Shown here piece by piece: positions 1,489-38,981 of a stretch of DNA of 57,637 bases. The notes beneath the pieces were generated by a model, which worked only from the letters and a program-made list of their open reading frames with translations, ran no database searches and had not been told where the DNA came from. Source of the stretch: an uncultured Candidatus Saccharibacteria bacterium (GTDB lineage: Bacteria; Patescibacteriota; Minisyncoccia; Phycocordibacterales; UBA918); contig CAYXYJ010000007.1 in the NCBI GenBank assembly GCA_964469295.1, positions 14,465 to 72,101 on the forward strand, given 5' to 3'. The translations under genes were made by a program, and so were the position numbers. The stretch's first letter is position 1. Each line of letters starts with the position of its first letter.

Positions 1489-2763
1489 CTATTTCAGCTT
1501 GCTGCGCCGCAGAAATGCAGGCACAGCCCCCCAATCGTCCTCATCATCTTCATCCACGGGGTCAACTGGTTTTGGATCACGTCTTGGAAGTTCAGGTTTT
1601 GGTTCCGGCATGGTATCCACGCGTGGCGCCACTGGTGCTTCTTCAGGTTCTGCTTTGCGTGGATTTGTCAGTGAATTAAAAATCCGTCCGCGGATAGGTT
1701 CGGCTGGTTGTTCGCGTTCAATAGTCTCTTCACGGACTGGTGTTGAAACGGAAACTGGCGGAGCAATCGGCGCTCGTCTGGCAATCGGAGTATTATGAGA
1801 ACCACTTTCTTCAGGGAAACCAGTAGCAATCACGGTCACTTTTACTTCGTTCTTTTTTAGCTTGTCATCTTTAATTGCGCCAAAGATAACGCGAGCTTGT
1901 GGATCAATTGACTCAGTGATAACGCGAGCCGCATCTTGGATTTCGAGCATCCCTAAATCGTCGCCGCCAGCAATTGCAAAGAGTACACCCTTGGCTCCGG
2001 TGATAGATACTTCGAGTAATGGGGAATTGATTGCACTGCGCGCCGCTTCCTCGGCCCGCTTTTCACCAGTGGAAACACCAACGCCCATAAGTGCTGATCC
2101 AGCGTTTTCCATAACGCTACGAATATCAGCAAAGTCAACGTTAATGATACCAGGCATGGTAATCAAATCAGAGATACCTTCAACTGCTTGTTTGAGGACA
2201 TTGTCACATTGTTCAAAAGCACTTTTCACAGTGGTTTCTTTATCTACAATCGCGAGGAGTCGGTCGTTTGGAATGGTGATGAGCGCGTCTACTTCTTTTT
2301 TAAGTTCTTCAATGCCTTGCATCGCCAAACGCATACGTTCTTGTCCTTCGAACATGAATGGTTTGGTTACTACCCCAACAGTGAGGGCTCCACTTTCGCG
2401 AGCGATTTTTGCAACCACCGGAGCGGCCCCGGTACCGGTACCGCCACCCATACCACAGGTCACAAAAATCATGTCTGAGCCTTTGATAGCGTTAGCAATT
2501 TCTTCACGAGTTTCCTCAGCTGCGCGGCGGCCCATATCAGGATTTCCTCCAGCTCCCAGTCCGCGGGTGAGATTTTTTCCGACATGAATCTTACGCTTGG
2601 CAAGTGAGTGGTGTAAATCTTGCGCGTCACTGTTGATGGCAATAAACTCAACACCTTTTACTTTGGCACCAACCATATAGTTCACGGCGTTATTGCCTGA
2701 ACCGCCAACACCAACGACGCGGATTCGCGCAAATGATTCGACGTCTGTTTTAATTTGTTCCAT
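1489..2763 (-). CDS. ftsZ: Cell division protein FtsZ
   Basis: GGGTGTG tubulin signature; C-terminal VPAFLRR peptide. Confidence 0.99.
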
Positions 2764-2937
2764 GATAGTATGCGACTAGTGAATAAATTCCAAAACTGCA
2801 CCGAAAAGACACTGGTACCCAACGTCATTTCTAGATGCACACATCATACAGGGAATAAAAGTATCTGTCACGATATTGACTAATACCGGTTTCGTGTTTT
2901 TGACGGATTACAATAAATGTTATTTTATTAAAACGTA

Positions 2938-4107
2938 TCAAGGAAGAAATTGAGATAACCATTCAAGGAGTGTTCGTTTTGTTTGCTTTACTACACCAAG
3001 TGCGGTTGTTTCGGTGCCGTCACTCGCCCCCAGCATACATAGTCCGTACGCAACCGCCCAAGACGCGTCACGAACTTTAGTGTTCTTTCCAAATTCAAGT
3101 GTGGCTACACGAGCTGGCAAATTGAGAGTATTTCGAGCCAGGTCTTGGATACCAACCGTCGTTGATCCACCGCCAGTTAAAATGATGCCGGCTGGTAATA
3201 AGCCATCTTTCTTAATTTTTTTCAGATGTAATCCCACCAATTCAAATATGTCACTCAACCGAGCATTGATAATTTCTTCTAATTTCCGTTTTGGAAACGT
3301 TGCCGATGTCATGCCACCGCGCTTCACTTTCTCAGCTTCTTCAAGAGGGATACGTAACCCAAGGGCAATATCATTCGTAATATCATTGGCACCAATTGGG
3401 AAGACTTTTAGAGAGATGGGAGTGAGGTCTTCAAAGACGACGGTTGAGACTGTTTCTGCACCGATGTTCGCCAAGATACAACCGGCACGTCGTTGCGCTT
3501 TTGATAATATGACAAAACTGGCCGCCAGTGGGGAAGCCATCACATCCTCGACATAAATACCCGTATGTTCTACGGCGCCGATGAGATCGTTTAGATGTTG
3601 TTCGTAGGTAGTAATGAACAACGTGTCTACCTCAAGTTTCGTGCCACGCATACCTTGGGGTTTCCCGAGAACGGCTTCGCCGTCAATGCGGTACCGAAGG
3701 GGAATGGCGTGAATGATTTTTCGGTTGGGGATGTGATCAATAATGCGATCCTCACTATCTTGTGCCACTTTTTCGATGTCAATGGTAGTGATTTCGGAAT
3801 CAGCCCGTGAAGTGATTACTTCTCCCGTAGACACAATTTCGTCCAATCCGATACTTCCAATTGATACATACGCCTTTTTTACTTCCACCCCGGCTACCTT
3901 TTCGGCTTGAGCGACGGCACTGCGAATGCTTCGAACAACATCACTCTCGCTCGTGATATAGCCATTACGTAAACCGCGGCTTTCGGCAAAGCCAGTACCA
4001 ATGACTTGGGGTAATCCGCGTTCGTTTTTGCCTTTGGGGACGCGAACAATAGCTACCTTTACTTGGTAGGTGCCCACATCGATACCAGTGATAATATGAT
4101 CAGACAT
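2938..4107 (-). CDS. ftsA: Cell division protein FtsA
   Basis: GIDVGT actin-like motif, NIGAETV, LTGGGS; directly upstream of ftsZ. Confidence 0.95.
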   Translation of the reverse strand: MSDHIITGIDVGTYQVKVAIVRVPKGKNERGLPQVIGTGFAESRGLRNGYITSESDVVRSIRSAVAQAEKVAGVEVKKAYVSIGSIGLDEIVSTGEVITSRADSEITTIDIEKVAQDSEDRIIDHIPNRKIIHAIPLRYRIDGEAVLGKPQGMRGTKLEVDTLFITTYEQHLNDLIGAVEHTGIYVEDVMASPLAASFVILSKAQRRAGCILANIGAETVSTVVFEDLTPISLKVFPIGANDITNDIALGLRIPLEEAEKVKRGGMTSATFPKRKLEEIINARLSDIFELVGLHLKKIKKDGLLPAGIILTGGGSTTVGIQDLARNTLNLPARVATLEFGKNTKVRDASWAVAYGLCMLGASDGTETTALGVVKQTKRTLLEWLSQFLP

Positions 4108-29270: not shown

Positions 29271-29413
29271 ACAGCAACGACCCAAATGCGAATGCATTTG
29301 GGTCGGCTGATCTGTGCGCCGAAATGGAAGCGGTTCGACAAATGTGTGTAGTGTAAATAAGCCTGAAATCGTGAAAATCTTGTGAATCTACCGCAAAATA
29401 GTAGGATGTCTAT

Positions 29414-29857
29414 ATGTCTGAATATAGACTCTCGCAAGAAATAGTGGCTTTATCTGAATCAGATAAGTGGGACGAAGCTCGACTTGAGTGGGAGCTTTTT
29501 CGAATGTTTGATCAAGATGATCTTGATACTTGCTTGTGTGGTCATTATCCCATAAAAGAAATATGTGTCCTGAGAAACAAAAAGAACGATAACCAGGCCA
29601 TCGTGGGTAACTGCTGTGTTCAGAAGTTTATGGGTATTTCTTCAGACAAATTGTTTGCTGCCCTTAAAAGGGTGAAAAAGGACATTGGCAAACCATTTAA
29701 CGCTGATGTTATAGAGTTTTCGTTTGAGCGTGGATATATTAGTGATTGGGAAAAGGGTTTTTATCTTGATACCTGGCGAAAGAGGGACTTGAGTGAGAAA
29801 CAGACAAAAGAAAGAGTTAAAATCAATAAGAAGATTCTGCTTAAACTATCAAAGTAA
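29414..29857 (+). CDS. Hypothetical Cys-rich (putative Zn-binding) protein
   Basis: CLCGH...C...VGNCC; ends 4 nt before the OLD nuclease start. Confidence 0.8.
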   Translation: MSEYRLSQEIVALSESDKWDEARLEWELFRMFDQDDLDTCLCGHYPIKEICVLRNKKNDNQAIVGNCCVQKFMGISSDKLFAALKRVKKDIGKPFNADVIEFSFERGYISDWEKGFYLDTWRKRDLSEKQTKERVKINKKILLKLSK

Positions 29858-29861
29858 ATTT

Positions 29862-31961
29862 ATGTTTTTATCAGTCGTAAAATTATGGAATTTCAGACAG
29901 TTTGGTTCAGTAGGATCTGAAAAAAACAGAAAACCTGACTTGCATACAACATTTGGTCCAGGGCTTAACTTGTTTGTGGGAGAGAATGATTCAGGTAAGA
30001 CGACTGTTGTTGACGCGATAAATTACATCGTTATTCCGCAGAGCTACGAAAACATGCGAATCAGGCATGATGATTTTTTTGGTGATGAAGATTGGCTAAG
30101 AATTGAATGTGTCTTTACTGGATTCACTTCAAATCAGGCTAAAAACTTCATCGAGTACTTAACAATTGATGATAAAAAAGTTTCAGAAATTGCAGCTGAA
30201 GAATTAACTGAGGATGAGCTAATAGAGAAACAGATTGCAAATCTAGAGATGACACTATTTTTGGAAGCTGAAAAAAATAGTGGAGATAAGCCTTTGTGGC
30301 ATAGGGTCAAAGTAAAAGTTGGAGATGAGGTGGTCGACTTAAGTGGTGATGTTCGATTTCAGTTTCTCAGATCAATGTATCTCAAGCCTTTAAGAGATGC
30401 AGAGAGCGAACTCACTGCTAAGCCAAGGTCAAGATTGTCACAGATTCTTCTTAAACATGATTCTTTTGAAGAGGCAAAGGGAGAAAAACACCCTCTCACC
30501 AAGGTATTTTCTGTGGCGAATACTGACATCAGAGGCTTCTTCGAAGGCGAATTTGCAGACCCTGAATCGGTACTGGATATTTTGAGTAGATTATTTATCT
30601 TGTCATCGAAAAAGGTTGAGCAAGGTCTGAATGCTGCAGATGAGGCAGAGTTAAGTTCTTTGCTTGATGAATACCATGATATTAAAACCAATAAAAATGT
30701 CTCTGGTAAAAGAGTAAGTGAACAAATTGGAGAGCACCTAAACAGGTTTCTTTCAAAGAAAAAGAGTAAACAGGCAAAGTTTGATATTTCTGATCAGCAA
30801 TTGTCACAGGTTTTGCAAAAACTTAATCTGGCTCTTGATGAGAAGCGCTCTGGCTTAGGTGCATTAAATATTTTGTTTATGAGTGCTGAACTGCTTCTTT
30901 TGGCAAGAGAGAAGTCAGCAAGTTTACAGTTGGGCATTATTGAGGAGGCTGAGGCACATCTTCATACACAAGCACAGATGAGAGTTCTTGATTACCTACA
31001 ATCGTTAGCTGACAAGAGTGCAGATTCTATGCAGCTATTCGTTACAACACACAGCACTCATATTGCTTCAAAGGTTAAGCTCAAAAACTTAATCTTGTTT
31101 AGAAATGGTAAGGCTTTCAGTATGGCGCCCAACCACACGAAACTTGAACCTCAAGATTACTCATTTCTGGAAAGATTCCTTGACGCAACAAAAGCAAATT
31201 TGTTTTTTGCTGAGGGAGTTTTAATTGTTGAGGGAGATGCTGAGAATATTTTGCTTCCCAGTCTGGCAAAGTTGATTGGCAGAGATCTTGTTTCTTACGG
31301 AGTTTCAGTTGTAAATGTGGGACATTCAGGACTCACACGATTTTCTGATATTTTCATTCGTAAAGAAGGTGAAAGTGAGCTTGATGTGCCTGTCGCAAAT
31401 ATTAAGGATCTTGATGTAAATTACAAAGATTATCTTGTAGAAGGAAAGTTAACGCTTCCTGAAAATATTGCAGAACTGGAGTTATCAAATTGGGAGAAAA
31501 AGGTAGAAGGAGAAGATCAGTGTGTGAAAAATTTTATTTCACCTCACAAAACTCTTGAATACGACTTGGCTCTAGATCAAGAGTTGAGAACTTTGTTTGC
31601 TAGGGCTGTATTTAGGATGATTCATTCTAGGCGCAAACAAGGTGAAGGGATTTTTATACAGGATGAAGCTTCGTTAAAAGCTGCAGATGAAGAGGCGGAT
31701 AATTTCATAAAAGAATCAGTGGAGGCCGGTAAAACTGACCAGCAAACAGCTTACGATTTATATAGGAAATGTAAGAAACACAAGACTCTAACAGCTCAAT
31801 TTTTTGCTCAGATATTAGAGGAATTCACACCTTCTGAACACCTCGATCCTAAGGGGCAGTTAATGTGTCGTGCAGTACAGGCTTCATTGGTCGCTAAGTT
31901 AAAACGTGGGAATGCTGGTTATTTGTTGAATGCTATTGAATATGTGACTGAACCTTTATAA
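29862..31961 (+). CDS. gajA: OLD-family ABC-ATPase/TOPRIM nuclease (Gabija GajA-like)
   Basis: GENDSGKT Walker A, IIEEAEAHLH Walker B, VTTHS, TOPRIM IVEGDAE and DLD. Confidence 0.85.
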   Translation: MFLSVVKLWNFRQFGSVGSEKNRKPDLHTTFGPGLNLFVGENDSGKTTVVDAINYIVIPQSYENMRIRHDDFFGDEDWLRIECVFTGFTSNQAKNFIEYLTIDDKKVSEIAAEELTEDELIEKQIANLEMTLFLEAEKNSGDKPLWHRVKVKVGDEVVDLSGDVRFQFLRSMYLKPLRDAESELTAKPRSRLSQILLKHDSFEEAKGEKHPLTKVFSVANTDIRGFFEGEFADPESVLDILSRLFILSSKKVEQGLNAADEAELSSLLDEYHDIKTNKNVSGKRVSEQIGEHLNRFLSKKKSKQAKFDISDQQLSQVLQKLNLALDEKRSGLGALNILFMSAELLLLAREKSASLQLGIIEEAEAHLHTQAQMRVLDYLQSLADKSADSMQLFVTTHSTHIASKVKLKNLILFRNGKAFSMAPNHTKLEPQDYSFLERFLDATKANLFFAEGVLIVEGDAENILLPSLAKLIGRDLVSYGVSVVNVGHSGLTRFSDIFIRKEGESELDVPVANIKDLDVNYKDYLVEGKLTLPENIAELELSNWEKKVEGEDQCVKNFISPHKTLEYDLALDQELRTLFARAVFRMIHSRRKQGEGIFIQDEASLKAADEEADNFIKESVEAGKTDQQTAYDLYRKCKKHKTLTAQFFAQILEEFTPSEHLDPKGQLMCRAVQASLVAKLKRGNAGYLLNAIEYVTEPL

Positions 31962-31963
31962 AT

Positions 31964-33892
31964 ATGACCAGCGATGAGATTGATATTTTAGAAATTGAAA
32001 AGATTTTACTCCCAGCAGGAGCCAGCTTTAATGATGAGAGACGAAAATTTATATTTGAAAACTCAAAAAATGTTGACCTCATTGCTTGTGCTGGAAGTGG
32101 AAAGACAACAGCTTTGCTTGCAAAATTACTATTGCTTGAACGACAACATAAAGCTAAAGATGGCATATGTGTTCTAACTCATACTAATGTCGCAATAAAC
32201 GAAATCAAAGATAAGATTTCATCTGACTCCATTCTTCTTCAATTCCCTAGCAGTTTCAGTACCATACAACAGTTTGTTGATCGTTTTCTAACTATCCCTG
32301 CATATAGGCATTTAACAGGGCACAACCTTAAGCAAATTGATACTGAAGCAGCCAATAAACGCTTTGTGAACAACCTTTATGCTCTACCTAACTCTACTGA
32401 GAAAACTGCGCTGTTTGGTTATCAAAGTTTTGGAAGAGAATGGGAAGATCGTAAAAAGGTTCTTGAAAGAGGTGTTGAATATATTATTGAAGTGGGGTCC
32501 GGTCATTTTAAATTTACAGGCAATCACAATAACAGACCAATACCTCTGAAAAACCCTAATAGTAATTGCTATAAAGCGACCAAAAAAGCAAAAGATGCAG
32601 TTTTTCTTGAAGGGTACATTACATATGATGAGGCTTATTCGCTCGCTTTTTGGTATTTAGATAAGTTTCCGTTTATTGAAAAGTGTCTTTCGGAAAGATT
32701 CCGTTTTGTGTTTGTTGATGAGATGCAAGATTCGTCAAAAATCCAAATTGATCTGCTTAAAAGAATTTTCAGACATCCTGATAATGTGTTTCAAAGAATT
32801 GGCGATCCAAATCAAACTATCTATGACACAAACAATGATAACTTGTGCGAATGGGAGCCATCAGAAAATCTGCATAACCTGAAAGGGAGTTTGCGACTTT
32901 CTACATCTACCGTTAAGGCTATTTCAGGCATTAGAAATGATTGTACAGAGGAAATAGAGGGGAATGAAAATTTACCTACAATAAATCCTCACATCATTAC
33001 TTTTAAAGAAGGTGAAGAAAATAAAGCTATTCATGAGTACAAGAATTTGCTGATAAAGCATTGGTCCGAATTAGATTACAAGGAAGGTGATCAAATAAAG
33101 ATTGTGGGTTGGACAGGGAAAGACAATGGTGATTTATGTTTGCCTAGGTATAACCCATTATTTTCTAATTCTACTTCAAAGAAATATCTTCCAAATATTG
33201 AGAGCTACAAATCTCAGTTTGAATCACATATCAGAAAGCGGGGGTCATTAAAGGCCGCCAGGTCCTTGATTCTACAAACTGCCACTCAGCTACTATTTGA
33301 GTTGGGAGTAAAAAATGAAAATAAATATTACACCCAAGTAGATGTTGAAGAGAAAATTGAGTCTCACGTGGATTTGAATCGAAGATTATTGAATCTGTCT
33401 GTAAATCTGGCTTATTCAGAAAATGCTTGGGATAGAGTTAATGAATTCATTTCAAACAATGTTTTACCACTGTTTATTCAAGATGAAAAAAGTATTGATC
33501 ATGAAAAGCTTAATGAATTCCTAAACGGTGAATCAGTCGTTTCAATTACATCTGAAGAACCTAATGATGCAGAGGATTTCTTGGTGGTAGATGATTTTGA
33601 CACAAAGATTCCGATTACGACTTCGACCATTCACTCAGTCAAAGGGGAGACTCATAAATCTACCTTGTATGTAGAGACTAAGTACCATAAATATGATTTG
33701 GAACGATTATTAAAGGGTCTCTGTGGAGGTTTGGAAAAAGCAGATAACTTAGACGGAAAGAGAAAGATGATGGGCTATGTTGCTATGTCCAGAGCGTCTC
33801 ACCTACTTTGTTTAGCGGTCCGTGATGTTGTTATTGACCAAGATTTAGAAAAGCAATTACAAGGTATTGGTTGGGAAGTGGTAAGGGCTTAG
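31964..33892 (+). CDS. gajB: UvrD-like helicase (Gabija GajB-like)
   Basis: ACAGSGKT, LTHTN, VDEMQD, IGDPNQTIY, TIHSVKGE, YVAMSRA; 2 nt after the OLD nuclease. Confidence 0.85.
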   Translation: MTSDEIDILEIEKILLPAGASFNDERRKFIFENSKNVDLIACAGSGKTTALLAKLLLLERQHKAKDGICVLTHTNVAINEIKDKISSDSILLQFPSSFSTIQQFVDRFLTIPAYRHLTGHNLKQIDTEAANKRFVNNLYALPNSTEKTALFGYQSFGREWEDRKKVLERGVEYIIEVGSGHFKFTGNHNNRPIPLKNPNSNCYKATKKAKDAVFLEGYITYDEAYSLAFWYLDKFPFIEKCLSERFRFVFVDEMQDSSKIQIDLLKRIFRHPDNVFQRIGDPNQTIYDTNNDNLCEWEPSENLHNLKGSLRLSTSTVKAISGIRNDCTEEIEGNENLPTINPHIITFKEGEENKAIHEYKNLLIKHWSELDYKEGDQIKIVGWTGKDNGDLCLPRYNPLFSNSTSKKYLPNIESYKSQFESHIRKRGSLKAARSLILQTATQLLFELGVKNENKYYTQVDVEEKIESHVDLNRRLLNLSVNLAYSENAWDRVNEFISNNVLPLFIQDEKSIDHEKLNEFLNGESVVSITSEEPNDAEDFLVVDDFDTKIPITTSTIHSVKGETHKSTLYVETKYHKYDLERLLKGLCGGLEKADNLDGKRKMMGYVAMSRASHLLCLAVRDVVIDQDLEKQLQGIGWEVVRA

Positions 33893-33913
33893 ATTTGATA
33901 TATAAATTGTTGC

Positions 33914-34324
33914 ATGAGTAATTTACTTGATTTAATAACTAAAAACTACTGTACGCTTCTTAACGTGCCAACTTCAAAATCTGCCGAAGGGCAGGCTTGG
34001 CAAATAATTGCTAATTTTTGGTCCCAGCTCTGGCCCTACTTGTTAGGATTCCTGGTCGTGGTGGTGTTGGCCGAGTTGCTGACTCGCCATAAAAATGAAT
34101 ATAACTCTGCAAATGGATTTACGCCTCAATTTAATAGATTTGTGGGGAGTGGCACATACATGGGGCTTCAGATTGGTCTATATTTTCTGGTCCATTTAAT
34201 ATTTGGAAACATTGCTTATTGTTTCCCTTGGCCGTATCTAGCTCACATAGTGGTGTTTTCGCTGACATTTTACATTCTGCATTGGATAGGATTTTGGCCT
34301 AAAAAATATAAGAGAAAGTACTAA
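33914..34324 (+). CDS. Hypothetical membrane protein (about 3 TM)
   Basis: Hydrophobic segments; 21 nt after the helicase. Confidence 0.7.
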   Translation: MSNLLDLITKNYCTLLNVPTSKSAEGQAWQIIANFWSQLWPYLLGFLVVVVLAELLTRHKNEYNSANGFTPQFNRFVGSGTYMGLQIGLYFLVHLIFGNIAYCFPWPYLAHIVVFSLTFYILHWIGFWPKKYKRKY

Positions 34325-34397
34325 ATGGTTTTGACCAAAGCATAGGCTTGTGACTACAATAAGTTTGAATCTTTGATTCTTATCAAAAATCAAACTT

Positions 34398-34697
34398 ATG
34401 GCACGAGGAGGCAAAAGACCAGGCGCCGGTCGTAAAAAAGGATTTTCAGCAATCACCGCGGAAGAGAGTCGCAAAGTTATTGCTGATCTTGTAGCTAAAG
34501 ATATTGCTCCAATTACTAAGGCCTTAATTAAAAAAGCAAAACAGGGAGATGTAAAAGCAGCTAGCTTGCTGTTTGATCGTGCGTTTGGAAAGCTTGAGAC
34601 AAAAGCTCAAAAACCATCTTTTTTCTACAATGTAGCTGATGTTCGAGAGCGATATGGATCCGGGGCAATGGCGGAGGAGCGAAAGAAGTTCAGTTAG
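34398..34697 (+). CDS. Small phage-type protein, terminase-small-subunit-like
   Basis: MARGGKRPGAGRKKG N-terminus; KAKQGDVKAASLLFDRAFGK helix. Confidence 0.55.
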   Translation: MARGGKRPGAGRKKGFSAITAEESRKVIADLVAKDIAPITKALIKKAKQGDVKAASLLFDRAFGKLETKAQKPSFFYNVADVRERYGSGAMAEERKKFS

Positions 34698-34709
34698 TCA
34701 TTTTTAAGA

Positions 34710-35243
34710 TTAGAATCCAGTCTTGAGTCCGAGTATATCTTCTCTTAACTTTTTAATGAACATAGCTTCCTTTTCGCGTAGTTCGACTACCAAAAGAGCG
34801 TTCTCTAAATTAAGTTGCTCATCAGAACTATCGCTAAGGTGCTGAGCGAAAGCTGATCCGATGACTGGTTCATTATCGTCATTGAAAATATTGTCGTACT
34901 CTCTGTATCTATCGTTCAGTAAGTCACTAATACTAGATCTTTGCTCAAAGTTATAGCCATTTCTCTTATATGCTGAAAAATACTCCTCATGTACTAAATC
35001 TAGAAACAGATGATTAGTGAGTTTGTCTGTATAAATTGGATTAATTCTTAAGTACCAAAGAAGATATGCCATGGACTCAAATTTAAAGACTTCTTTAAAT
35101 TTGCCACTCCATGGATTTACCTCACTTTCATTTTCGAGTACAACATTGTGAGCAATTAAGGCAAGTTCACTTGATACAACTAATGCTACTTTTCTCAACG
35201 CTCTTTTAAAGCGCTTGAATTTTAAAAATTTAATTATTGACAT
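34710..35243 (-). CDS. Hypothetical protein
   Basis: 177-aa ORF preceded by a structured leader. Confidence 0.7.
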   Translation of the reverse strand: MSIIKFLKFKRFKRALRKVALVVSSELALIAHNVVLENESEVNPWSGKFKEVFKFESMAYLLWYLRINPIYTDKLTNHLFLDLVHEEYFSAYKRNGYNFEQRSSISDLLNDRYREYDNIFNDDNEPVIGSAFAQHLSDSSDEQLNLENALLVVELREKEAMFIKKLREDILGLKTGF

Positions 35244-35249
35244 ACAAAA

Positions 35250-35378
35250 AGCCCGCTACCAGGTAGGACCGAAGTCCATATCTAGAGTTTCCCCCAAATA
35301 GCACAAACAAGTGACCCCTGATAACGGGTTCTTTACTTGTTTGTGACTAACTTATTCGCACCATACCGCCAGCGGGCT
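35250..35378 (-). promoter_or_regulatory. Structured leader RNA / attenuator
   Basis: AGCCCGCT/AGCGGGCT closing helix plus U5 just before the ATG; 11-bp inner helix; cUUCGg hairpin. Confidence 0.65.
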
Positions 35379-35472
35379 GTCGGGTTAGGTGACTATATTG
35401 TGTTTGTAATATTACACTTAGTTTCTTGGTCCGCAAGCGTTACTTTTCACGGAAAAGAGCTAATATAAAATC

Positions 35473-36093
35473 ATGAAGGAGCTGGAGATTGAAGATACAT
35501 GTGGTGTATGTGAGAAAATTCAGAAAATTGCTGAGGGAAGTTCTTCTGGCCAGGTGTTAACTTACCTACTTGAGACAAGCTCCAACACTCGTTTAAAGAA
35601 AGAAAGAGCATGTCTTGAAGAACTCGCAAATGAGTACCATGCTATTACTTTTGTTGGTAGGGCTGAGACGCATCTAAATAAAATAAAATATAAATTCCGA
35701 ATAAACGAGAAGCGATTTCAAAAGCATTTAAACGACGAGTGTAATCCTGAACATTTCCCTAGAAAAATTGGTGACAGAGTTCAGATTATCGCAAGCATGA
35801 GGTGGGGTTTGTTTGTAAAAGGAAGGCCTGAGTACCGATGTAGATTGTCTCCGCGTAGAATGAAATTCATTTTTAACTTAATGTATGGATCTGATGATAT
35901 TCCAACGCGAAATGGTAAGAAAATGTCTACTTCAAACAAAACTAAAGCTGTGAATATTATCAACGACCAATTCATGAGTAGTCTGGGTTTTGATAAGAAG
36001 CTTGTTGAAGGGGATGGGGGTCGTGGTTATTACTTGAATGAGCTAGTTTATATTGTTACTCCAGACCAACAATATTCCACGGAAATGGAATAA
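35473..36093 (+). CDS. Hypothetical protein with possible C-terminal winged-helix DNA-binding domain
   Basis: C-terminal ...AVNIINDQF...LVEGDGGRGYYLN resembles an OmpR-type wing. Confidence 0.6.
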   Translation: MKELEIEDTCGVCEKIQKIAEGSSSGQVLTYLLETSSNTRLKKERACLEELANEYHAITFVGRAETHLNKIKYKFRINEKRFQKHLNDECNPEHFPRKIGDRVQIIASMRWGLFVKGRPEYRCRLSPRRMKFIFNLMYGSDDIPTRNGKKMSTSNKTKAVNIINDQFMSSLGFDKKLVEGDGGRGYYLNELVYIVTPDQQYSTEME

Positions 36094-36116
36094 AATGATA
36101 GTCGAATGATTTATGT

Positions 36117-36216
36117 CAGCTCTGTACTCTCGTAAGTACGGAGCTGGTTTTCGTTAAGACTCGTCACCAGTAAGGACTCTCCAAACCAGCTCCTTGGAGG
36201 GTCCTTACTGGTTTTT
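36117..36216 (+). promoter_or_regulatory. Two-hairpin RNA switch upstream of the rep/integrase gene run
   Basis: 12-bp and 19-bp stems each followed by T-runs; 11-nt cross-complementarity between 36140-36150 and 36183-36193. Confidence 0.65.
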
Positions 36217-36219
36217 ACT

Positions 36220-36378
36220 ATGCAACTTTCTGAACAACACGTTGAAGCGTTCATTGAACTATATAAAAAACATTATGGTGTTGTTCTTGATCGTGAAGTT
36301 GCAGTCGAGAAAGGTATTCAGCTTTGTAGATTAGTAGAACTTGTTGATTTTAGTCAAAGTGAATATGAAGAAGAATAA
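36220..36378 (+). CDS. Unannotated 52-aa protein (MQLSEQHVEAFIELYKKHYGVVLDREVAVEKGIQLCRLVELV...)
   Basis: Open frame ATG 36220 to TAA 36378, overlapping the next ORF; amphipathic helical pattern; below the ORF-track size cut-off. Confidence 0.7.
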   Translation: MQLSEQHVEAFIELYKKHYGVVLDREVAVEKGIQLCRLVELVDFSQSEYEEE

Positions 36379-36679
36379 AAAATTACTTGAAAGTGTTGTG
36401 GAAGTTTTTACCTTTAAAGAAGCGGTGGTTTTGCAATACACAGGTCACTCTCTTAGATCAATTGATAAAAATAATGACATTGATTGTCCGTATATCTATC
36501 GTTTCTTTCTTAGGAGCGACACATTAGCACTGCTTGATGATTTTGGAGAAGGTACGATTATGGTCGAACCGGGTTGTTTTATTGATGCTTTGGGAAACTT
36601 ATTGGAGCAAAAAGAACGCTTTGTGGGAGGGGGTAAGAATAAAAAAGATGACAATAAAGGGCTGGATCAAATTATTTAG
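36365..36679 (+). CDS. Hypothetical protein
   Basis: Overlapping ORF in the island operon. Confidence 0.55.
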   Translation: MKKNKKLLESVVEVFTFKEAVVLQYTGHSLRSIDKNNDIDCPYIYRFFLRSDTLALLDDFGEGTIMVEPGCFIDALGNLLEQKERFVGGGKNKKDDNKGLDQII

Positions 36680-37139
36680 GAGAGAATTTGAATGGTTCAA
36701 GGATCTTTCAAATCCAGAAATAGTGTATTTACTCGCTGCACGAGTCGTTGCAGAGTGGGATAATAAAAAGGAGCAATTTGGGACTTTTGATGCAAGAATC
36801 AAAGAAATGCAGAAGATTCTCGGATGGTCTGATGGTACTATAAGCAGAGTTGGCAAATTGCTTTTGAGCAAGGGTTATTTTCATAAAACTGATGACCATA
36901 GGCGCTGGAGGATAACAAATGCAGAATTATTTTTCTCTAAGGGTGGCAGTAGTAAAAAAGCTGAAAAAATTATTTTAGATACCGAAACTAATCTTCAAAC
37001 ACACGAACTTAATCTTCAGATATCTGAATATTTTCCAGATAAGATTAAGCAAGGAATCAAGGATTTAAAGGATAAAATGAGTGTGTCTGATGGCTCTAAG
37101 AAGAAGAATCAAGAAGATAAAGAAAATACAAATAAGTAA
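36648..37139 (+). CDS. Phage-type replication initiator / HTH protein
   Basis: N-terminal GWIKLFRR resembles the GWIKLHR motif of phage replisome organisers; HTH-like LGWSDGTISRVGKLL..KGY. Confidence 0.6.
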   Translation: MTIKGWIKLFRREFEWFKDLSNPEIVYLLAARVVAEWDNKKEQFGTFDARIKEMQKILGWSDGTISRVGKLLLSKGYFHKTDDHRRWRITNAELFFSKGGSSKKAEKIILDTETNLQTHELNLQISEYFPDKIKQGIKDLKDKMSVSDGSKKKNQEDKENTNK

Positions 37140-37142
37140 AAC

Positions 37143-38981
37143 ATGGACAGATATAAAGCAAGTAAATATTTCCTATACCTAAGACGGTCCCAAGACGCGG
37201 AAGATCGGCAGATGGCATCACTTGAAGACCAGGAGTCTGAGATGGTTGCTGTTGCTGAAAAACTAGGCCTAGAAATTGTTGACGTTATTGAGGAGTCTCA
37301 ATCAGCTAAAAAACCAGGAAGACCAAAATTTAATGACATGATTGCGAGAATCCATGCTGGAGAGGCAGATGGAATTGTTTGCTGGAAAATCAATCGCCTG
37401 GCTCGTAATCCAGTTGATGGTGGTCAGATCTCATGGCTTTTGCAGCAAGGGGTAATTAAACATATTCAAACGTACTCACGTGACTATCAGCCGTCAGACA
37501 ACGTGATTATGATGGCGGTTGAGCTTGGTATGGCGAACCAGTTTGTGAATGACTTGAGTGTCGATGTGAAGCGAGGAATGAGACAGAAGGCTGAACGTGG
37601 TTGGTATCCGCAGAGGTCTCTTCCTCCTGGCTACAAGCACAATAAGGGGTATGAAAAAGGTGAGGTTGAGATTGTGAGCACGAAGGAGCTCTCAATAGTG
37701 AAGAAGCTTTTCGAGGATATGCTGACCGGCAACTATTCTGCTTCGGATATTCAGAGAAAGTGTGGCACGTATGGAATAACCGGAAGGAAGGGGCAGCCAT
37801 TACCGCTTCAAACAGTCTTTAACATTCTCACCAATGAATTTTATTGTGGGTATTACTATTGGAAAGATTCTAATGGAGAAGAGGTAAGACACAAGGGCAA
37901 GCATAAGGCTATTTTGAGCGAGGATGAGTTTAATCGGGTCCAGAGGTTGTTGGGTAAGAAAGGGAGGCCAACACGCGTTAATAAGCTAGATTTTGCGTTT
38001 AGAGGCCCATTGAATTGTGGGGAGTGCGGGTGTGCTGTTACAGCTGAAGAAAAAGTGCGTTGTGTCTGTACTGGCTGCCGCTACAAATTCTCAGCCAAGA
38101 CTAGGACTGATTGTCCTAAGTGTGGTCTAGATCTATCAGAAATGAATGATCCAAAAATATACCGAAATGTCTACTACCACTGTACGAAAAAGAGAAAGGA
38201 CTATAAGTGCACTCAAAGTGTTATTGATGAAACGCAACTCAAGAAACAGGTGTATGGAGAATTAGGCAAAGTTGAGATTGATGAGGATTTCTACAACTGG
38301 GCAGTAGCGGCCCTTAAGCATACTCACGGTGATGAGATGCAGACTCAAGGTGACATCTTGAAGGGTCTTAATGATCGTTCTGTGGCTATTCAAGCACGTA
38401 TTGATAAGTTTGTACTGATGCGTGCAGATGGAGAGATTTCAAGTGATCAGCTTGCTCGTATGACAGCTGATGAAGAGAAAAGCTTAAAAGATATTGAAAA
38501 AGAGCAGAAGCGTCTTCATGCTCGTATGACAGAGTGGTCCGCTACTGCCGACAAGTATCTAACTTTTGCTGATCGGGTCCGCAGAAAATTCAATAAAGCT
38601 TCAAATGAAGAGAAAAGAGAGATGTTGACCATGTTAGGTTCGACACTCGAAATAACTGACAAAAAATTCAGAGTTATAGTCGCGAATGAGCTTTTAGGCT
38701 TCAAAAACGTCTATGTGAAATTGGGTAAGAAATTAGGAAGGTTCGACACTCAAAAAGCCCTTGATATACAAGGACTTTCTGAACAAAAACGCTTAGTTTT
38801 TGATGAACTGTGCGCCGGGAGGGATTCGAACCTTCGTAGGCTGATGCCAGCAGATTTACAGTCTGCCCTCGTTGACCGCTTGAGTACCGACGCAATTATG
38901 TGCATGAGGTGGTCAAACCTCATCTGTGTCGTACAACTTACCACAGATTGCCACTATTTTCAAAGGGGTCTTGTGTGGTAG
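37143..38981 (+). CDS. Large serine recombinase (integrase)
   Basis: YLRRSQ catalytic Ser, SAKKPGRPKF, INRLARN, recombinase domain, Zn-ribbon (CGECGC...YYHC), coiled coil. Confidence 0.96.
   Translation: MDRYKASKYFLYLRRSQDAEDRQMASLEDQESEMVAVAEKLGLEIVDVIEESQSAKKPGRPKFNDMIARIHAGEADGIVCWKINRLARNPVDGGQISWLLQQGVIKHIQTYSRDYQPSDNVIMMAVELGMANQFVNDLSVDVKRGMRQKAERGWYPQRSLPPGYKHNKGYEKGEVEIVSTKELSIVKKLFEDMLTGNYSASDIQRKCGTYGITGRKGQPLPLQTVFNILTNEFYCGYYYWKDSNGEEVRHKGKHKAILSEDEFNRVQRLLGKKGRPTRVNKLDFAFRGPLNCGECGCAVTAEEKVRCVCTGCRYKFSAKTRTDCPKCGLDLSEMNDPKIYRNVYYHCTKKRKDYKCTQSVIDETQLKKQVYGELGKVEIDEDFYNWAVAALKHTHGDEMQTQGDILKGLNDRSVAIQARIDKFVLMRADGEISSDQLARMTADEEKSLKDIEKEQKRLHARMTEWSATADKYLTFADRVRRKFNKASNEEKREMLTMLGSTLEITDKKFRVIVANELLGFKNVYVKLGKKLGRFDTQKALDIQGLSEQKRLVFDELCAGRDSNLRRLMPADLQSALVDRLSTDAIMCMRWSNLICVVQLTTDCHYFQRGLVW
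38811..38893 (-). tRNA. tRNA-Tyr(GTA)
   Basis: Cloverleaf, loop CTGTAAA, long variable arm; lies antisense inside the recombinase ORF tail. Confidence 0.95.

Follow-up and report, generated by a model that had tools for sequence, protein, structure and literature searches.

Gene content of the island

The window (the whole 57,637-nucleotide stretch analysed here) contains a 9.5 kb integrative island (29312-38817) that carries a Gabija cargo, adjoins tRNA-Tyr and is bounded by a 10 bp direct repeat, CTGTGCGCCG, at 29312 and 38808. The GC content of the island is 0.36-0.42, compared with 0.44-0.50 across most of the remaining window. The genes are arranged in the order Gabija-like OLD ATPase/TOPRIM protein, UvrD helicase, membrane protein, DUF5681 protein, minus-strand 177-aa gene, 206-aa orphan, two hairpins (denoted hairpin 1 and hairpin 2), 52-aa ORF, 104-aa DUF5659-like ORF, 163-aa GWIK-type protein and large serine recombinase.

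The 206-aa ORF (35473-36093, plus strand) lies upstream of the hairpins and is probably the first gene of a transcription unit. Searches of Pfam and PHROG with it give no matches, and it shares 29% identity with the 208-aa ORF that occupies the same position in a related locus (L065). The 104-aa ORF (36365-36679, plus strand) is a divergent DUF5659-like ORF that overlaps the 52-aa ORF by 14 nt. It is 37% identical to a 111-aa ORF of L066 and can be aligned by eye only, with no tool alignment, to the 77-aa ORF of a further relative (L005), which matches DUF5659 at 1.8e-8. The 163-aa protein (36648-37139, plus strand) has a GWIKxFRRE motif and is 73% identical to a 163-aa protein of L066. It is probably a winged-helix DNA binder; a Pfam scan of the window protein gives no match and its relative in L067 has a weak MarR-like winged-helix signal, which leaves the ‘rep’ label that the first-pass annotation had attached to this gene unproven.

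The large serine recombinase (37143-38981, plus strand; phrog_95, 2.5e-69) has a 3′ end that runs antisense through tRNA-Tyr (38810-38893). The second copy of CTGTGCGCCG (38808) sits inside the recombinase ORF, such that integration would alter the C-terminus of the recombinase. The integrase ORFs of L005 and L067 likewise finish at or within a tRNA. A LOOT RNA (Rfam RF03000) is found at 35265-35391 on the minus strand of the window (48.3 bits; gathering threshold 46.4), directly upstream of the minus-strand 177-aa ORF. The match is stronger in the related island L067 (1682-1812, minus strand, 71.7 bits), and the LOOT RNA seems to belong to the backbone of this island family. Beside the integrase end of the related island L005, positions 2735-3031 (G034:C122) match a group I intron with 61.7 bits.

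The 52-aa ORF belongs to a conserved small-protein family

The 52-aa ORF (36220-36378, plus strand) is absent from the ORF track, as had been pointed out, and is a genuine gene, a member of an unnamed conserved small-protein family with homologues in 35 of the 401 genomes of the order and at nine metagenome loci. The family has the pattern MxLxDxxIxxFxxLYxKxFG...A.EKG..L.RL; no relatives of the 52-aa protein are found in Pfam, PHROG or the PDB. In nearly all relatives the small ORF begins 1-7 nt after an ORF of 75-139 aa (mostly 77-99 aa), which is DUF5659 in L005, the single relative scanned. Because the small ORF abuts the preceding ORF, these relatives have no spacer equivalent to that of the window. 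The same holds for the nine metagenome loci, recovered by an alignment-based search, in all of which a DUF5659 gene abuts the small ORF. The window and three related loci (L065, L066 and L067) have the small ORF and the DUF5659-like gene in swapped order relative to the other relatives.

Five of the relatives with DUF5659 first (L005, on its reverse strand, L059, L060, L062 and L068) share a leader about 30 nt before the DUF5659 gene. It consists of a CTTATAC-type -10-like box followed by a hairpin, TAGACTC-N9-GAGTCTA. This hairpin abuts the ATG in L005, L059, L060 and L062, and its sequence is unrelated to that of the hairpins in the window.

Two stem-loops separate the 206-aa and 52-aa genes

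Hairpin 1 (36115-36148, plus strand) begins 22 nt beyond the stop codon of the 206-aa gene. It has a stem of 13-14 bp, a 6-nt loop and a folding energy of -19.8 kcal/mol alone, and looks like a terminator. Its core is formed by 36117-36128 paired with 36135-36146 (12 bp including one G.U), followed by TTTTCGTT; the U-tract is UUUUCGUU (36147-36154). A linker of 15 nt (36151-36165, plus strand), which is poorly alignable with the relatives, leads to hairpin 2 (36166-36212, plus strand), the conserved core of the element. Here 36166-36184 pair with 36194-36212 in a stem of 19 bp, including one G.U, closed by a 9-nt loop, ACCAGCUCC, with a folding energy of -32.1 kcal/mol alone. The 3′ tail of hairpin 2 is TTTT(T)ACT, or UUUU(U)ACU in the transcript, and the ATG at 36220 lies 7 nt past the stem. 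Both U-tracts are short, with four to five U, and CTGGTTTT is common to the 3′ ends of the two hairpins. A terminator scan flags hairpin 1; hairpin 2 is missed solely because the scan allows loops of up to 8 nt.

The segment GGAGCTGGTTT (36140-36150, plus strand), made up of the 3′ arm of hairpin 1 and the first bases of its U-tract, is exactly reverse-complementary over 11 nt to AAACCAGCTCC (36183-36193, plus strand), which comprises the top two nucleotides of the 5′ arm of hairpin 2 and its whole loop. The two hairpins, both T-runs and this cross-complement are thus all present as described in the first-pass annotation. Its reading of both hairpins as terminator-like also stands for the window, where they are stable plus-strand stem-loops with U-rich tails; relatives have no U-tract (see below).

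Neither the fold nor the complement is a product of chance. The 132-nt region that holds both hairpins folds with -60.8 kcal/mol, compared with -30.1 ± 3.6 kcal/mol for shuffled sequences (z = -8.5), and the minus strand of the spacer folds 10.5 kcal/mol more weakly than the plus strand. A perfect inverted repeat of at least 11 nt appears in 2 of 3000 dinucleotide shuffles of the 132-nt region (P about 0.0007). The hairpin region is present as a single copy in the 842-kb genome. Genes in this genome are often followed by long-stem hairpins with T-runs (57 sites, stems of 9-25 bp), and the window holds 27 perfect inverted repeats of at least 11 nt.

Hairpin 2 is conserved in related islands

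The closest homologues of the small ORF (75% and 69% identity) lead to L065-L067, which share the gene order of the window: a 208-aa gene, a 151-nt spacer, a 53-aa ORF, a DUF5659-like ORF, a GWIK protein and an integrase. The flanking proteins of these relatives are 29%, 73%, 37% and 73% identical to those of the window. The cargo differs: the window has Gabija, and L067 (1-5659) an SduA_C (Shedu) protein. Judged by gene content, this is an island family with a common backbone (DUF5681, the 206/208-aa protein, the hairpins, the small ORF, the DUF5659-like ORF, the GWIK protein and a tRNA-adjoining serine integrase) and exchangeable defence cargo. The spacers of L065 and L066 are identical, so that the comparison comprises three distinct spacers (the window, L065/L066 and L067), two of which are close to each other.

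The stem of hairpin 2 reaches 21-22 bp in L065 and L067. Two double changes between homologues occur in the lower stem (C:G to U:A and G:C to A:U), A:U to U:A flips occur at the top, and several single changes stay paired via G.U. Two segments are invariant in all three spacers, the loop motif CAGCUCC and, within the 3′ arm, GGAGGGUCCUUA. Conservation of hairpin 1 is partial: its GCUC/GAGC core and an inner helix of 4-5 bp are kept in L065 and L067. Scored jointly, the two hairpins have 92% of cells paired and five pairs with double changes, in an alignment of three sequences of which two are close; none of 500 shuffles matches this, and controls in which the alignment was slid give 37-50% paired. 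Wherever a stem position of the three homologues departs from Watson–Crick pairing, it is G.U on the plus strand and never A.C, which we take to indicate a single-stranded fold of the plus strand, that is, an RNA. Across the three homologues, folding of the plus strand is favoured over that of the minus strand by 2-11 kcal/mol.

In L065 and L067 both hairpins lack a U-tract. Hairpin 1 is followed there by AAAACAACC or CAAAUUACC and hairpin 2 by GCUGGAGG, beyond which the relatives have a further 28 nt able to form a third hairpin. Since the U-tracts are absent, termination is not the reason for the conservation of hairpin 2 and its invariant loop, and an element that is kept without a U-tract must have another, sequence-specific role.

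Searches for further homologues of the hairpins covered several collections. A DNA search of 61 relatives matches the 52-aa ORF only, in G034, and leaves the hairpins unmatched; a search of a phage collection with the hairpin region gives no match. No related locus is found with the 52-aa protein in the genome contigs, with the 206-aa protein in the viral contigs or by the alignment-based locus search (A6) of the viral contigs. An exact-pattern scan for the outer stem of hairpin 2 has no matches in genome or viral contigs, and the pattern CAGCTCC-N2-4-GGAGGGTCCTTA is absent from the viral contigs and, among the 401 genomes, occurs in the window only. Word-based protein searches with the 206-aa and 208-aa queries return self-matches only, and exact look-ups of three neighbouring proteins return the same contigs again. 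The matches of a covariance model over the 401 genomes are generic long hairpins sharing AAGGAC...GTCCTT, either terminators or in-ORF palindromes of one genome, and are not homologues.

The palindromes of that genome (G295) form a set of their own. Near-identical copies, GGCAAGGACTCTCCTT-N9-11-AAGGAGAGTCCTTGCC, are present at no fewer than four loci (at least 4) on four contigs (L072, L080, L084 and L086). All lie inside long ORFs (407-776 aa), an arrangement that recalls palindromic elements inserted in coding sequence.

Promoter-like and ribosome-binding sequences

The genome looks largely leaderless and devoid of Shine–Dalgarno (SD) use. SD-like cores precede 6.3% of 495 long ORFs, compared with 8.1% in controls, and are thus not enriched. 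Upstream of genes, TATACT is enriched 13-fold, and in 42 of 85 cases its last base lies 5-9 nt ahead of the ATG, a spacing that is the signature of leaderless mRNAs. Promoters were assigned from hexamer statistics alone. By this measure the 206-aa gene has a candidate promoter, TAATAT, 6 nt ahead of its ATG, a spacing typical of the leaderless promoters of the genome. No -10-like box is found within 50 nt upstream of the 52-aa ORF, and those of the genes downstream of it are weak at best. The linker between the hairpins contains AAGACT, 6-8 nt ahead of hairpin 2, which matches TATACT at four of six positions; its counterpart in the relatives is CATACT or CATACA. AAGACT may be regarded as a weak promoter lead.

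Two other candidate signals were considered and rejected. The GGAGG in hairpin 2 is not given a Shine–Dalgarno role because the genome does without SD use. A leaderless promoter (TTTACT/TACTAT) just before the ATG would stand at a distance of 0 nt, as opposed to the usual 5-9 nt.

The cross-complementary segments

The first-pass annotation had proposed that pairing of the 3′ arm of hairpin 1 with the loop of hairpin 2 forms a pseudoknot or antiterminator that alternates with the two terminators and so gates the rep and integrase genes. In its favour are the exactness of the 11-nt complement, which is improbable by chance, and an observation in the relatives, where a different segment, UUUGCUCC, located further downstream, is an extended complement of the GGAGC arm and alternative folds come within 3-4 kcal/mol of the minimum free energy (MFE); for this reason we keep a small probability for some long-range interplay. 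The cross helix itself loses on energy, on order of synthesis and on conservation, and we consider a switch of this kind very improbable.

Forcing the 11-bp cross helix costs 27.5 kcal/mol on 36094-36240 and 30.2 kcal/mol on 36094-36222 relative to the two-hairpin fold, and its ensemble probability is 0. In a growing transcript, hairpin 1 has formed by 36148 and then persists, and the cross helix is in no MFE structure of any transcript prefix from 36130 to 36238. The helix overlaps the loop of hairpin 2 and just two nucleotides of its stem, and thus sequesters no terminator strand; its 3′ strand (36183-36193) is transcribed later than the U-tract of hairpin 1. With so small an overlap and so late a 3′ strand, the cross helix cannot prevent either termination event. 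A pseudoknot alongside hairpin 2 would, from the coordinates, have connecting loops of 0 nt, which counts against it given the geometry of H-type pseudoknots.

Comparison with L065/L066 and L067, the two distinct homologous spacers recovered, gives the same answer, and it is the outcome that the annotation had named as speaking against its proposal. In these spacers the helix loses six of its 11 pairs, with no compensating change inside it. The counterpart of AAACCAGCTCC in the relatives is UUGUCAGCUCC or UUGCCAGCUCC. The part kept is GGAGC:GCUCC, five pairs that never vary; each of the remaining six is unpaired in at least one of the relatives. Counts for the cross helix do not differ from those of shuffles (146/500 and 219/500). 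Compensatory change, which the annotation had suggested looking for in all three helices, is found in hairpin 2, in an alignment of three sequences; hairpin 1 is partly kept, and the cross helix has no such change. Nor is a known sensor associated with the region: at a permissive threshold, Rfam gives no match better than E = 2 for 36059-36289, and there is no leader ORF on the plus strand of 36094-36219.

The complement is best accounted for as a putative lineage-specific by-product that probably forms no functional alternative state. Five bases of the 11-nt match follow from two independently conserved motifs, the GGAGC arm of hairpin 1 and the CAGCUCC loop. Two further bases derive from the base of hairpin 1 in the window, CAGCUC/GAGCUG, where the relatives have CUGCUCC or GAGCUCA, and another four from the window-specific U-tract opposite the A-rich top of hairpin 2.

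Function of the stem-loop module

We give about an even chance to the reading that the hairpins are a conserved plus-strand stem-loop module in the backbone operon of the island, which in the window has gained U-tracts and serves as a pair of tandem leaky terminators. Transcription would most likely start at the leaderless-type promoter directly ahead of the 206-aa gene. Polymerase would reach hairpin 1 and its U-tract and, 64 nt further on, hairpin 2 and its U-tract. Both would act as leaky intrinsic terminators in this island, and a small read-through fraction would feed the 52-aa ORF and the genes of the DUF5659-like protein, the winged-helix protein and the serine integrase, each of which lacks a convincing promoter of its own. 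With just 7 nt between hairpin 2 and the AUG, and in a genome that seems to be SD-less, ribosome loading on the 52-aa ORF is probably hindered as well. The idea that the hairpins gate the small-ORF, winged-helix and integrase genes is thus plausible as a limiting, constitutive attenuation, with the hairpins placed between a promoter-like box and these genes; its two-state part is not upheld. Several points weigh against tandem termination as the whole account: the U-tracts of the window are short; the exact 11-nt complement is improbable by chance (P about 7e-4), and the by-product account is conjectural; and hairpin 2 with its loop is conserved where no U-tract exists, which termination leaves unexplained.

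This conservation is the starting point of a different reading, to which we attach a rather low but real probability, that hairpin 2, together with hairpin 1, serves above all as a conserved RNA element of sequence-specific action that would set the level of the small-ORF/integrase transcript, the U-tracts being secondary. Candidate roles are those of a binding site for a protein, a target of RNase III processing or a 5′-terminal stabilizing stem-loop. The CAGCUCC loop and the GGAGGGUCCUUA 3′ arm are invariant and the lower stem covaries between loci whose upstream protein is just 29% identical, and the U-tracts are absent from the relatives. A stem of 19-22 bp is comparable in length to RNase III substrates. 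Also in favour of this reading are the A/CATAC-like boxes 6-9 nt before hairpin 2 in all three sequences, and the relatives with DUF5659 first, which have a -10-like box and then a hairpin abutting the ATG. Against an RNA element of this kind, the candidate -10 boxes are weak, with CATACT and AAGACT showing no positional preference genome-wide; a window transcript that started at hairpin 2 would run into the U-tract immediately; and the sample is three sequences. More speculative still, and in our view unlikely, is the specific proposal that hairpins 1 and 2, together with the third hairpin of the relatives, are an undescribed cis-regulatory RNA of integrative defence islands of the CPR, whose CAGCUCC loop and GGAGC arm would be read by an island protein or RNA partner that sets expression of the small ORF, winged-helix and integrase genes and thereby controls excision. 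A function at the level of DNA, with hairpin 2 acting as a cruciform or single-strand hairpin (an origin, a nick site or an operator for the winged-helix protein or a recombinase), seems improbable to us. As DNA, hairpin 2 reads as a 47-bp imperfect palindrome whose centre is conserved; the winged-helix gene lies about 450 bp and the integrase gene about 950 bp downstream, and the short motif GCTCC/GGAGC recurs three to four times. Every mismatch in the palindrome, however, is G.T on the one strand, a pattern that suits a plus-strand, single-stranded fold rather than a duplex operator; stems of 19-22 bp are far longer than usual operators; the island has no HUH Rep or relaxase; and the arms are unlike the flanks of the 10-bp att core. 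An att-like site in particular was rejected after comparison by eye of the hairpin 2 arms with the sequences around the 10-bp core at 29312 and 38808.

As it stands, the arrangement is an ordinary way of keeping the integrase and replication-type genes of an integrated element quiet, by terminator-like stem-loops past a promoter. Its value is modest and lies in the annotation of a poorly known family of CPR defence islands, in which a shared backbone is combined with interchangeable cargo, Gabija in this island and Shedu in a relative. Among the backbone parts are a hairpin that is conserved together with its invariant loop, a LOOT RNA and a small, unnamed protein that is widespread in the order. 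Were the loop a recognition site, it would offer a handle on excision control of such islands in organisms that cannot yet be cultured.

Comparison with known systems

Tandem or intra-operon Rho-independent terminators, which give graded operon expression, are similar in having G+C-containing stem-loops with U-runs in gene orientation, here two in series before genes for which low expression would be expected, with the first starting 22 nt after a stop codon. Hairpin 2 differs from them in being unusually long and stable (19 bp, -32 kcal/mol) and in ending 7 nt before the next start codon. Its conservation without a U-tract and its invariant loop indicate that termination is not the sole or ancestral role. 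Classical attenuators (trp-type 1:2 / 2:3 / 3:4 leaders and riboswitch expression platforms) share with the locus consecutive hairpins with possible cross-pairing upstream of regulated genes. Unlike theirs, the alternative helix here spares the 5′ arm of the terminator, is about 28 kcal/mol worse and is not conserved, and neither a leader peptide nor an aptamer or Rfam match is present.

Intercistronic stem-loops and RNase III sites are found in phage and operon mRNAs, among them the T7 early region and the sib-type retroregulation of int in lambda. These resemble hairpin 2 in being long, near-perfect plus-strand stems between cistrons of a mobile element, near an integrase operon; the hairpin described here is upstream of int, not downstream. 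The leader hairpin of the relatives with DUF5659 first (TAGACTC-N9-GAGTCTA) is unrelated in sequence, has a stem of 7-8 bp and is a single hairpin without a U-tract, but it too stands directly before the first gene of the module and abuts its start codon.
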